Shown piece after piece: positions 50,005 through 52,764 of a stretch of 64,000 bases of DNA (positions within the stretch are counted from its first letter, which is position 1; every line of letters starts with the position of its first letter). The DNA is taken from NCBI RefSeq assembly GCF_988242995.1, contig NZ_OZ547043.1. One strand, 5' to 3'. Both the position numbers and the translations under genes were made by a program. The notes below the pieces were generated by a model. It did no database searches and was not told the origin of the DNA. It saw nothing but the letters and a program-made list of their open reading frames with translations.

Positions 50005-50529
50005 TTATTGTTTAACCCATAATAATTCATTGACATTGAATCCCAACTTTTGAGCGGTTCGCACATAGTCTGCTTTTACTTTATCTGGAATAGTTGGGGT
50101 CCTTGCCAGAATCCATAGGTATTCTCTGTTCGGACCACTGACAAGAGCATACTTATACTCATCATCCAGTTTGATTACATTATAGCCACCATAGAAGGGG
50201 CCAAAAAACGAAACCTTCAACGCTGCAGTTTTAGTATCTCCAGTAAAGTATGCTTTACCTTCGCTCTCGCTCCATTTATTTTTCGTTGGATCGTATCCAC
50301 GGTTAAGTACACGAATCCCTCCGTCGTTCCGTTTTCCATAAGTAGCGCTGACCTGTTCCAGACCACGTTCGAACCGGTTCTCGAGGCGAGCTATTTCATA
50401 CCACTTTCCGAGGTAGCGGTTGGCGTCAAAATTTGTAATCGGCTGCACACCTTTAGGTGGTGTCGGGGCCTTACATGCTATAAGAGTGAAAGAGAGTGCA
50501 ATGCCAGTCAACACAGGCCATAACTTCAT
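50005..50529 (-). CDS. outer-membrane lipocalin lipoprotein (Blc-like)
   Basis: 174-aa ORF with lipoprotein signal (LIAC) and strong similarity to recalled E. coli Blc (YLGKWYEIARLENRFERGLE...). Confidence 0.8.
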   Translation of the reverse strand: MKLWPVLTGIALSFTLIACKAPTPPKGVQPITNFDANRYLGKWYEIARLENRFERGLEQVSATYGKRNDGGIRVLNRGYDPTKNKWSESEGKAYFTGDTKTAALKVSFFGPFYGGYNVIKLDDEYKYALVSGPNREYLWILARTPTIPDKVKADYVRTAQKLGFNVNELLWVKQ

Positions 50530-50721
50530 AATAAATCCTGTACTTTTGATAGTTGAGAGTAAGTATGAAAGATAGATGATTACGACCGATCACTTAAAGA
50601 ACTTTCATACTATATTAGGAATAGTCCATAACAGAAAAATTGTCAGTGATGACGCCAGAAAGGCAATTTATTCCGTGCACTACACAGTTTATGTGTTAAT
50701 GAATTAGTCAAGGGGGAGGAT

Positions 50722-51681
50722 ATGATAAAAAAACCTGTGATTGGAATCAGCGGTTGTCTGGCCGGTTCTGCTGTTCGTTTTGATGGTGGTCACAAAAGAG
50801 CTGACTTTTTAATGGACAAATTAGTGGAATGGGTAACATTCAGACCAGTATGTCCGGAAATGGCTATAGGGCTGCCAGTTCCGCGTCCTGCTCTACGTCT
50901 TGTGCGCTCGACGCAAGGAAATATACGGATGTGTTTCAGCCACGACCAGAATGAGGATGTGACAGAGAGAATGACAGAGTTTAGTCGTTCTTATATGGAC
51001 AAATTAAAGGATGTATCGGGGTTTGTGGTTTGTGCTAAATCTCCCAGCTGTGGCATGGAGCGCGTGCGTGTCTATGATGAAAATGGTAATCGAGGTCGTA
51101 AAGATGGAGTGGGACTATTTACGAGCACTTTGATGGAAAAGTTTTCCTGGCTACCGGTTGAAGAGGATGGGCGATTACATGATCCAGTGCTTCGTGAGAA
51201 TTTTGTTGAAAGAGTTTTTGCTTTGCATGAGCTCAATCACCTTTACAAGGAGAAATTATCAAGAAGAGAGTTATTAGCTTTTCATAGTCGTTATAAGCTT
51301 CAGTTGTTGGCGCATAGTCAGGCAGGCTATAAAGATATGGGACCATTTGTGGCTGCAATACACGAGTGGGCGGACCTTGAATCATACTTTGAGGTGTATC
51401 GTGATAAGCTGATGGCGATTCTCAGAAAACCTGCATCACGTAAAAATCACACGAATGTGCTGATGCATATACAGGGGTATTTTAGTAACTACTTAAGTAC
51501 ACGCCAGCGTAAAGAGTTGAGCGAGGTTATACTTAACTATCGTTCTGGCACATTACCTCTTCTTGCGCCGTTGACTCTGCTGAAGCATTATCTGGGTGAG
51601 TATCCTAATGATTACTTGCTTACACAGAATTACTTCGATCCCTATCCGGACGAACTGGCTCTAAGACTGATGGTAAATTAA
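50722..51681 (+). CDS. DUF523 (TudS-like, Cys-rich) fused to DUF1722 (YbgA-like) protein
   Basis: 319-aa ORF; conserved Cys in the N-terminal half (GISGCLAG, PVCPE, CAKSPSCGME) suggest an Fe-S site; C-terminal half YbgA-like. Confidence 0.65.
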   Translation: MIKKPVIGISGCLAGSAVRFDGGHKRADFLMDKLVEWVTFRPVCPEMAIGLPVPRPALRLVRSTQGNIRMCFSHDQNEDVTERMTEFSRSYMDKLKDVSGFVVCAKSPSCGMERVRVYDENGNRGRKDGVGLFTSTLMEKFSWLPVEEDGRLHDPVLRENFVERVFALHELNHLYKEKLSRRELLAFHSRYKLQLLAHSQAGYKDMGPFVAAIHEWADLESYFEVYRDKLMAILRKPASRKNHTNVLMHIQGYFSNYLSTRQRKELSEVILNYRSGTLPLLAPLTLLKHYLGEYPNDYLLTQNYFDPYPDELALRLMVN

Positions 51682-52023
51682 TTGTATGCGATATCATCCA
51701 AAAGGATGAGTTCCTGCATGCAGGATATTTACAATCGTAAAAACTACACTATGATACCCAGAGTGTCAGTTTGTATAAAAACTCTGTTTACGCTGAAGAA
51801 ACCATTGAGATGCAACTTAAAGTTGGTAAACATGCCAGTCAAAATATATAATATTATGATTCCACGCAGCTATATATAATATAACAGATTGGTTTAATAA
51901 TTTGTCTTTGTGAGTTAAATACATAATTTTATACTTGTGATGCAATGAGATTTTCCTTATTGTTGAACTGGCGAATATTGATTTTCCACCTATACTTACC
52001 TGGTGTAACCCCAATGATATCAG

Positions 52024-52764
52024 GTGGATAATATGCCATACATATGTTCTATCATTTTGGTGTTGAACTCGTTTGATGTCCGAATTGGTAAAGAAGATAT
52101 TTTATTTAAAAAAGGAAGTGCTGTTCTCATTGATTACAATTTAAAAGATTTTTTTTCATCAAATATAGATCATGCAATGATCGTAGATGTTGAAGAGAAA
52201 ACAGTTAATGATTTCTTTAAAAGCAACACACTCTCACCTTTTTCTGTAAGAAGGTTTTATCCGGCATACTTGATGGTGGAATGTGAAGATTTTTCATTGT
52301 TAAAGAACTTGATTGCATGCTTGAATTGTGATGGCAGAACTGTGGATTTTGTTAGAAATCAAATATCACTTGCATGTCTTGCTATCTTATCTTCAGAGAA
52401 AATAGTGCAAAGTTTTTTATTTGGATGTCTTAATAGTTTAGGAAGTAAAGTTAAGGCTATTATTCACACGGATATATCTGCAGCATGGAGACTTTGTGAT
52501 ATATCTTCAAGACTGTATCTGAGTGAAAGTCTGTTAAAAAGAAAATTAAAGCACGAAGGCTTATCATTTAGTAAGTTAATTCTTGAAGAGCGAATGGTGA
52601 TGGCGGAAAGGTTATTAAGCTACAATTTATATTCTGTTGGAAAAGTTGCTGAGATATGCGGTTATGAAAACACGTCATATTTTGTAAGTGTTTTCAGAAG
52701 ATATTTTGGTGTTCCTCCCCATCAATATTCATCAAGACTTTTTTTAGAAAAAGACATGATGTAA
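52024..52764 (+). CDS. AraC/XylS-family transcriptional regulator (AppY/EnvY-like)
   Basis: 246-aa AT-rich ORF with C-terminal AraC HTH (..SESLLKRKLKHEGLSFSKL.., ..GYENTSYFVSVFRRYFGVPP..); about 340 bp AT-rich leader. Confidence 0.75.
   Translation: MDNMPYICSIILVLNSFDVRIGKEDILFKKGSAVLIDYNLKDFFSSNIDHAMIVDVEEKTVNDFFKSNTLSPFSVRRFYPAYLMVECEDFSLLKNLIACLNCDGRTVDFVRNQISLACLAILSSEKIVQSFLFGCLNSLGSKVKAIIHTDISAAWRLCDISSRLYLSESLLKRKLKHEGLSFSKLILEERMVMAERLLSYNLYSVGKVAEICGYENTSYFVSVFRRYFGVPPHQYSSRLFLEKDMM

Follow-up and report, generated by a model that had tools for sequence, protein, structure and literature searches.

The subject of this report is a cargo cassette of a lambdoid prophage in a stretch of 64,000 nucleotides—the window—from contig NZ_OZ547043.1 of the NCBI RefSeq assembly GCF_988242995.1. 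The prophage is attached at tRNA-Arg(tct) (34814–34890), which is the argU/DLP12 site. Between its antiterminator gene Q and its holin gene S—the Q–S slot—lie three intact open reading frames, encoding a predicted outer-membrane lipocalin (Blc2), a RudS-family protein predicted to remove 4-thiouridine (s4U) from tRNA, and an AraC-type regulator. An earlier reading made from the letters of the DNA (the sequence-only reading) had described a three-gene moron between Q and the holin gene of an argU prophage, and the present analysis confirms the genes, their positions, both flanks, and the integration site. The genes and the borders of the slot are as follows.

49472–49849, plus strand: antiterminator Q gene (QuuD-type; phrog_79, E = 1e-51; 87.5% identity with K-12 QuuD; RefSeq annotation in strain AST215), left border of the slot

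50005–50529, minus strand: blc2, predicted outer-membrane lipocalin lipoprotein of 174 amino acids (Pfam Lipocalin_2, E = 8e-44; phrog_2809), antisense to the late transcript

50722–51681, plus strand: rudS, TudS(DUF523)–DUF1722 fusion of 319 amino acids (Pfam; phrog_3275, E = 1e-227; 93.4% identity to RudS_vir)

52033–52764, plus strand: AraC/XylS-family regulator of the prophage PatE/AppY/YdeO group (HTH_18, E = 2e-14; phrog_1450, E = 3e-106)

52953–53168, plus strand: holin S gene (EssD-type; phrog_20/9876), right border of the slot

The prophage backbone is collinear with DLP12 of K-12 except for the cargo: in blastn, positions 49832–52941 of the window take the place of the nmpC region, and the homology to DLP12 picks up again at 52942. 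A porin gene fills the slot in DLP12 and likewise in phage ev243, which bears out the earlier description of this interval as a cargo site. The three genes sit between Q and S and displace the different cargo of related phages, as is expected of a moron. In Stx phages, the stx genes occupy the same position. The slot bounded by Q and S is common to the window, to the nmpC/ompD porin genes of DLP12-like phages, and to stx, and the porin-type cargo additionally shares a conserved sequence beside Q and a terminator before S; the gene content, on the contrary, is unlike the trio of the window. All three cargo proteins fall in existing PHROG families (2809, 3275, and 1450).

The middle gene encodes a protein of two domains. 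Pfam places a TudS domain (PF04463, 2-thiour_desulf/DUF523) at residues 7–149 (E = 1.6e-39) and DUF1722 (PF08349) at residues 192–309 (E = 2.2e-40); the DUF523–DUF1722 assignment made earlier, as well as those of the lipocalin and of the AraC family for the two neighbors, is upheld by these profile searches. The sequence-only reading could not place a desulfurase-like enzyme of a phage in any described system. This no longer stands, as the fusion corresponds to the RudS family, named in 2024 (Jamontas et al., NAR 2024, PMC11417400), whose members strip s4U from tRNA by means of a catalytic TudS domain and a tRNA-binding DUF1722 domain. Among the enzymes cloned and tested in that work is RudS_vir—gp66 of Escherichia phage 1H12 (NC_049947), with Cys12, Cys44, and Cys110—whose overexpression in E. 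coli leads to less s4U in tRNA (PMC11417400). The protein of the window is 93.4% identical to RudS_vir, both having 319 residues; with the RudS of phage IdasGreatGrand, the identity rises to 99.7%.

In RudS, a [4Fe-4S] cluster is held by three conserved cysteines, and catalysis involves a Glu, an Arg, and a Ser-x-Ser motif (PMC11417400). In an alignment of 31 homologs, C12, C44, C110, E46, R55, S107, and S109 of the window protein are invariant. The three cysteines are at the positions given for RudS_vir and RudS_ST, and Cys12 and Cys44 align with Cys10 and Cys43 of the TudS structure 6Z92, such that the TudS-like cysteines proposed earlier are indeed in place. E46, R55, S107, and S109 match E51, R60, S111, and S113 of RudS_KT by their offset from the cysteines, not by a direct alignment with RudS_KT. 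Many DUF1722 residues are invariant among the same 31 homologs as well, and this domain is intact. Judged by its sequence, the 319-residue protein is a member of the RudS family of tRNA s4U desulfidases; by analogy with the 93%-identical ortholog described in the literature, it would carry the same s4U desulfidase activity.

The closest described system is phage 1H12, which shows the same TudS–DUF1722 layout at the same place, between blc and an AraC gene in the Q–S slot. The copy of the window is a different allele and resides in an argU prophage with a disrupted capsid gene. The cassette, its neighbors, and its prevalence are undiscussed in the RudS paper (PMC11417400). More distant relatives cover one half of the protein each. 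TudS, the stand-alone DUF523 thiouracil desulfidase (PDB 6Z92), matches the N-terminal domain, but it lacks DUF1722, acts on free thiouracils, and its similarity to the window protein is weak (E = 2e-4 over 60 residues). YbgA of E. coli, a stand-alone DUF1722 protein co-transcribed with the photolyase gene phr, is 49% identical to the C-terminal half and, unlike RudS, bears no catalytic domain; it left tRNA s4U unchanged (PMC11417400). The window protein stays below the NCBIfam equivalog cutoff for YbgA (190.8 vs 237).

The lipocalin gene is read in the opposite direction. Its product exceeds the curated NCBIfam cutoff for Blc (NF007786; 316.1 bits vs 267) and begins with a lipoprotein signal peptide, MKLWPVLTGIALSFTLIAC, whose lipobox LIAC, as read from the sequence, ends at Cys19. 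The ampC-adjacent Blc of E. coli shares the lipoprotein signal peptide, the lipocalin fold family, and a passing NCBIfam Blc score, yet K-12 Blc is only 60% identical to Blc2, whereas the rudS-adjacent Blc proteins of Enterobacter and Citrobacter reach 79–82%. These identities mark Blc2 as a paralog of the chromosomal Blc within a second, rudS-linked Blc lineage. The trio had been called unusual; for blc, a role as moron had been noted before, in more than 50% of the lambda phages from the infant gut (Mathieu et al. 2020, PMC6969025). In the papers on LitR light regulons, Blc is unmentioned, and we hence make no claim of a light-induced Blc2.

The open reading frame of the regulator opens at a GTG at 52024 (246 amino acids). 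Its likely start is the ATG at 52033—the RefSeq start, preceded by an AGGTGG-like ribosome-binding site—giving a protein of 243 amino acids with the C-terminal double helix-turn-helix of the HTH_18/HTH_AraC families in Pfam. It had been described as AppY/EnvY-like, which proves imprecise: AppY shares 31% of its residues and EnvY 29%, compared with 53% over 235 residues, in a full-length alignment, for ECs_0287 of strain Sakai. We take ECs_0287 to be PatE (Z0321) because it is the sole AraC-family gene of the Sakai prophage Sp1/OI-8. PatE and PsrB are prophage-encoded AraC-like activators of host acid and stress genes (PMC10877973), and AppY also activates host stress-response genes; an activation of the gadE/hdeA acid-resistance promoters is described for PatE and PsrB only (PMC10877973). 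By analogy with PatE, PsrB, and AppY, the regulator of the window would most likely activate host acid and stationary-phase stress genes. In size, low guanine–cytosine (GC) content, and prophage location, its gene resembles those of PatE, PsrA/PsrB, and AppY. The place within the prophage differs: patE is found at one end of its prophage, appY is likewise terminal in DLP12, at the far side, and the window gene lies in the Q–S slot. PsrA/PsrB were also sought in Sakai prophage Sp6; no homolog was found in the 49 kb examined, and this comparison was dropped.

For the origin of the cassette, chromosomal RudS loci outside E. coli were scanned with one genome per species, which yielded 41 loci in other Enterobacterales. 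Full-length RudS with 66–76% identity to the window protein is encoded on the chromosomes of Citrobacter, Enterobacter, Klebsiella, Leclercia, Lelliottia, Kluyvera, and others; the same range holds for known loci such as RudS_ST (ORF319, STM1389) of Salmonella and the rudS gene beside a MerR-family gene in E. cloacae. At 21 of the 41 loci, a divergent blc gene lies upstream, whose product is about 80% identical to the phage Blc. Most of these 21 loci hold two further genes between blc and rudS, which in the Enterobacter type encode a 241-residue MerR-family regulator with the MlrA helical and C-terminal domains, and a transthyretin-like (HiuH-like) protein, i.e., a hydroxyisourate hydrolase relative. 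Some species carry shorter forms of the locus; Citrobacter sedlakii has only a spacer of about 190 bp between the divergent blc and rudS genes, the same arrangement as in the phage. Of the two intervening genes that the chromosomal loci usually hold, the phage cassette has neither, and it bears an AraC gene downstream. Neither an AraC nor a Q homolog occurs at any of the 41 chromosomal loci, and no photolyase gene lies within 6 kb of the rudS loci sampled. Aligned with the Citrobacter spacers, the phage blc–rudS spacer shows no conservation; hence, there is no regulatory site that could have been inherited by homology.

As an observation on these loci, the order in Enterobacter cloacae (locus L016, 4019–6960; likewise in L014–L046) is blc2 on the minus strand, the MlrA-type MerR gene, the transthyretin-like (HiuH-like) gene, and rudS, and the literature searched offers no explanation of how a lipocalin, a periplasmic protein of the transthyretin-like type, and a tRNA eraser are connected.

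Within the phage cassette, the GC content is 0.30–0.33 over the AraC gene and its leader and 0.42–0.47 in blc and rudS. Cassette variants differ most in the rudS–araC spacer, and their AraC proteins share 82–86% identity, compared with 93–98% for Blc2 and RudS. From this GC step, the hypervariable spacer, the divergence of AraC, and the absence of AraC from the chromosomal loci, two sub-modules can be distinguished: in terms of sequence, blc–rudS is a captured chromosomal pair, to which the AraC gene was joined separately. As a whole, the trio does not go back to a single origin. That the blc2–rudS pairing is kept across genera suggests a functional link between the envelope lipocalin and the tRNA eraser. 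New in this analysis are thus the chromosomal blc–rudS pair in Enterobacter, Leclercia, and Citrobacter, its apparent capture without the regulator, the separate AraC gene whose nearest relative appears to be PatE, and the selection acting on all three genes.

The cassette is widespread, with a frequency of about 18–19% in E. coli. Among 5,426 complete E. coli genomes, 978 carry the Q-to-S stretch at a coverage of at least 80%, 1,046 (~19%) the blc–rudS pair, and 995 the AraC gene. It is also found in the Q–S slot of a Qin-like prophage at another chromosomal site (92.6% DNA identity), which brings the number of prophage backbones to two or more. Records of isolated lambdoid phages add 12 further carriers, and all 12 phages with RudS also have the AraC gene. 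In phage 1H12, the match spans the whole Q-to-S interval, and the order Q, blc on the minus strand, rudS, araC, and S is that of the window. The sequence-only reading had proposed to look for the trio elsewhere as its own refutation test, and it passed, given the co-occurrence on a large scale in E. coli genomes and in the 12 phages. Compared with phage 1H12, the ratio of nonsynonymous to synonymous substitution rates (dN/dS) is lowest for blc (0.06), followed by rudS (0.10) and araC (0.28). These ratios show that all three genes are under purifying selection; they are maintained genes and not chance open reading frames. E. coli was said to be without TudS and RudS homologs (PMC11417400); as regards RudS, this is true of K-12 and not of the species.

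A few E. coli genomes hold truncated rudS copies that are annotated as DUF523-only or DUF1722-only. Plasmid matches to the cassette number four, two of them in chromosome-sized records (~4.8–4.9 Mb), and are uninformative.

The spacers and flanks of the genes contain candidate transcription signals.

49821–49932, plus strand: candidate late-promoter/qut region, with a TGGAGA-18-AATAAT site from a promoter scan over the Q stop codon and the block ATATAACAG at 49924–49932; its role is putative

49948–49978, plus strand: tR'-like intrinsic terminator just 3' of Q, at a distance of 27 bp to the stop codon of blc, a GC-rich stem of 9 bp (hairpin 49948–49971) followed by a T run

50530–50721, no strand assigned: divergent intergenic region blc2/rudS of 192 bp, near-identical in phage variants, with weak promoter-like sites only

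51682–52032, plus strand: AT-rich leader and junction between rudS and araC (~30% GC, 351 bp), with two 10-of-12 sigma70-like sites at 51728–51755 and 51823–51852 and a second ATATAACAG block at 51879–51887

52826–52855, plus strand: intrinsic terminator after the AraC gene and before S (hairpin 52826–52847), a cassette part that is common to 1H12 and not to DLP12

The hairpin after Q folds with −26.2 kcal/mol (z = −4.24). Despite the differing cargo, the blocks around the Q stop codon and the 9-nt ATATAACAG are invariant between trio-carrying and porin-carrying prophages; the copy between Q and the first terminator is unchanged in DLP12 and ev243, which carry porin cargo, and in 1H12. It recurs inside a 17-of-20 match in the araC leader and may represent a late-promoter or −10-like element. 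A plus-strand terminator directly before S is present with both types of cargo. The Q-adjacent blocks and the terminators would fit the lambdoid order, in which the late promoter is followed by a first terminator, the cargo, and then the lysis genes. An Rfam scan of 49300–53300 gave nothing near the gathering score. The AT-rich leader and the terminator 3' of the AraC gene that the sequence-only reading had pointed out are both present. Its statement that the genes have their own signals holds for the terminator and promoter motifs as such and not for an excess of promoter-like sites over chance: these occur at the level of shuffled sequence, and the cassette's own signals are therefore seen as motifs only.

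Taken together, we regard the trio as a composite lysogenic-conversion (moron) cassette in the Q–S slot of a DLP12-like lambdoid prophage, a cassette that Q-dependent late transcription would also traverse; we assign this reading a probability of roughly 70%. How the genes are expressed, which physiological benefit they bring, and which genes AraC targets, we infer as follows. The first sub-module, blc2–rudS, would have been taken from the locus conserved in Enterobacter, Leclercia, Lelliottia, and some Citrobacter, with loss of the intervening genes. RudS, as a [4Fe-4S] desulfidase, would turn 4-thiouridine of tRNA back into uridine. With less of the near-UV-sensitive s4U, there would be less tRNA crosslinking and, in turn, a milder growth delay and stringent response after ultraviolet A (UVA) exposure. 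Blc2, as an outer-membrane lipocalin lipoprotein, presumably serves the upkeep of envelope lipids under stress. The second sub-module, the low-GC AraC-family regulator with the presumed PatE as its closest relative, would have been gained separately and would act on host stress genes. In the lysogen, transcription of the cargo genes would start at promoters of their own. Upon induction, Q-modified RNA polymerase starting beside Q would pass the first terminator, cross blc2 in antisense direction, and put rudS and araC on one transcript with the lysis genes.

Several points weigh against this picture or parts of it. The promoter-like sites are no more frequent than chance would give (13 found vs 10.7 ± 3.1 expected from shuffled sequence). 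For the late promoter PR', there are three candidates—TTGCTG-17-TAACAT (7 of 12), TGGAGA-18-AATAAT (9 of 12), and a −10-like TATAAC—of which the sequence by itself favors none. The AraC protein is just 53% identical to the presumed PatE and falls below every NCBIfam equivalog cutoff (126 bits vs 348 for YdeO, 85.6 vs 500 for GadX), and the equation of ECs_0287 with PatE is itself drawn from the position of the gene in Sp1/OI-8. The tight co-occurrence of the three genes may be explained by mere physical linkage inside 3 kb. The link to light derives from the LitR regulons of Pseudomonas and from the RudS authors' inference for Enterobacter, where the regulator is of the MlrA type, and the phage cassette is without any copy of it. 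Finally, although its protein levels were good, RudS_vir desulfidated tRNA to a lesser extent than other RudS enzymes, and of all those tested it had the shortest lag on 4-thiouracil (PMC11417400). The preferred substrate of RudS_vir in vivo could hence differ, and these two properties make a somewhat broader substrate range of RudS possible.

The same two properties are what speaks for an enzyme that acts mainly on free thiolated bases or nucleosides—a TudS-like salvage or detoxification—and not on tRNA, as does the complete TudS domain of the window protein. No RudS variant, however, was a match for TudS in supporting growth on thiouracils, and tRNA s4U fell with every one of them (PMC11417400); the tRNA-binding DUF1722 domain is intact in the window, with many residues invariant. 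We therefore consider this substrate preference very unlikely. RudS might also serve the phage rather than the lysogen: expressed late in the lytic cycle, it would erase s4U and thus keep host translation going for late proteins under the very UV or sunlight that induces the prophage and crosslinks tRNA. Such a role agrees with the location of rudS and araC, which share the strand of the late transcript and lie after the post-Q terminator and before S, with the equivalent position of stx in Stx phages, and with the easing of the UVA growth delay by RudS overexpression (PMC11417400). On the other hand, late expression leaves scant time to alter the tRNA pool, and both the intact cassette in a prophage with a disrupted capsid gene and the purifying selection in many prophages fit a benefit to the host. 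As the main purpose of RudS, we hold this role to be rather doubtful, while the phage-serving and host-serving roles could coexist. In a wider and similarly tentative version, the cassette is a sunlight strategy of the phage: RudS behind a Q-dependent late promoter would strip the UVA-sensitive s4U, either on induction or constitutively in the lysogen, so that translation, and with it the making of late phage proteins or the growth of the lysogen, escapes the near-UV growth delay and the stringent response, while Blc2 and the AraC regulator would extend the stress tolerance outside the gut. If this improbable scenario were true, a prophage would set about one fifth of E. coli strains apart from K-12 in tRNA s4U levels and UVA physiology.

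The remaining alternatives concern the coherence of the trio. The AraC protein might replace the lost MlrA-type regulator at the divergent blc2/rudS promoters and possibly counter silencing by H-NS, which would join all three genes into one circuit. At the donor loci, a regulator that is absent from the phage does separate blc from rudS; 12 of 12 phages and ~95% of the carrying genomes have the AraC gene linked to blc–rudS; and the phage-specific blc–rudS spacer is AT-rich and strongly conserved. A shared operator was sought between this spacer and the araC leader, and the short two-copy repeats were at about chance level except for the 17-of-20 ATATAACAG match, which yields no convincing common operator. 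In addition, lambdoid phages with a porin gene in the Q–S slot and no blc–rudS encode PatE-like homologs (~52% identity) elsewhere, the characterized relatives of the AraC protein act on host genes, and no part of the cassette diverges more than the AraC gene; a single circuit is hence unlikely. At the opposite extreme, the genes would be unrelated hitch-hikers without selected function that persist in a permissive slot of a successful prophage. The mixed composition of the cassette, its variable junction, and the tolerance of the slot for quite different cargo would allow for this. The dN/dS values of 0.06–0.28 argue for a selected function, though, and so do intact copies in about 1,000 genomes on two prophage backbones and the blc–rudS synteny conserved across genera outside phages, which leaves this explanation as the least probable one.

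The findings leave current concepts as they are and add to known families. Since ~19% of complete E. coli genomes carry a prophage rudS, natural E. coli strains may differ in the 4-thiouridine content of their tRNA, in UVA growth delay, and in the stringent response. A lysogen and its cured counterpart would provide a simple natural system for a tRNA-modification eraser at native expression.

Beyond the cassette, the prophage shows several features of its own. The major head gene ends after 82 codons (61061–61306) and is followed by a tyrosine integrase gene (61469–62704), such that a satellite-like integrative element is inserted in the capsid gene, from 61061–62704 onward to 64000. The counterpart of this insertion element in AST215 encodes a primase as well as its own capsid and decoration genes. 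The prophage of the window can thus probably not build its own heads, though its cargo cassette is intact. In the early region, about 2.2 kb are missing at 37026–37383 relative to the near-identical AST215 prophage, where this segment consists of a hypothetical gene, a SAM methyltransferase gene, and most of a PAPS-reductase-family gene. A further moron lies between the replication gene P and ybcN on the plus strand (43775–47683) and encodes an inverse autotransporter of 1,302 amino acids, i.e., an intimin/invasin-like adhesin; within this gene, a 357-bp unit is present in two tandem copies (45082–45789) that are 95% identical. Downstream of the lysis genes, the minus strand carries a gene for a Bor/Iss-type serum-resistance lipoprotein (54155–54448; phrog_260, E = 4e-59), which is a known lambdoid moron.

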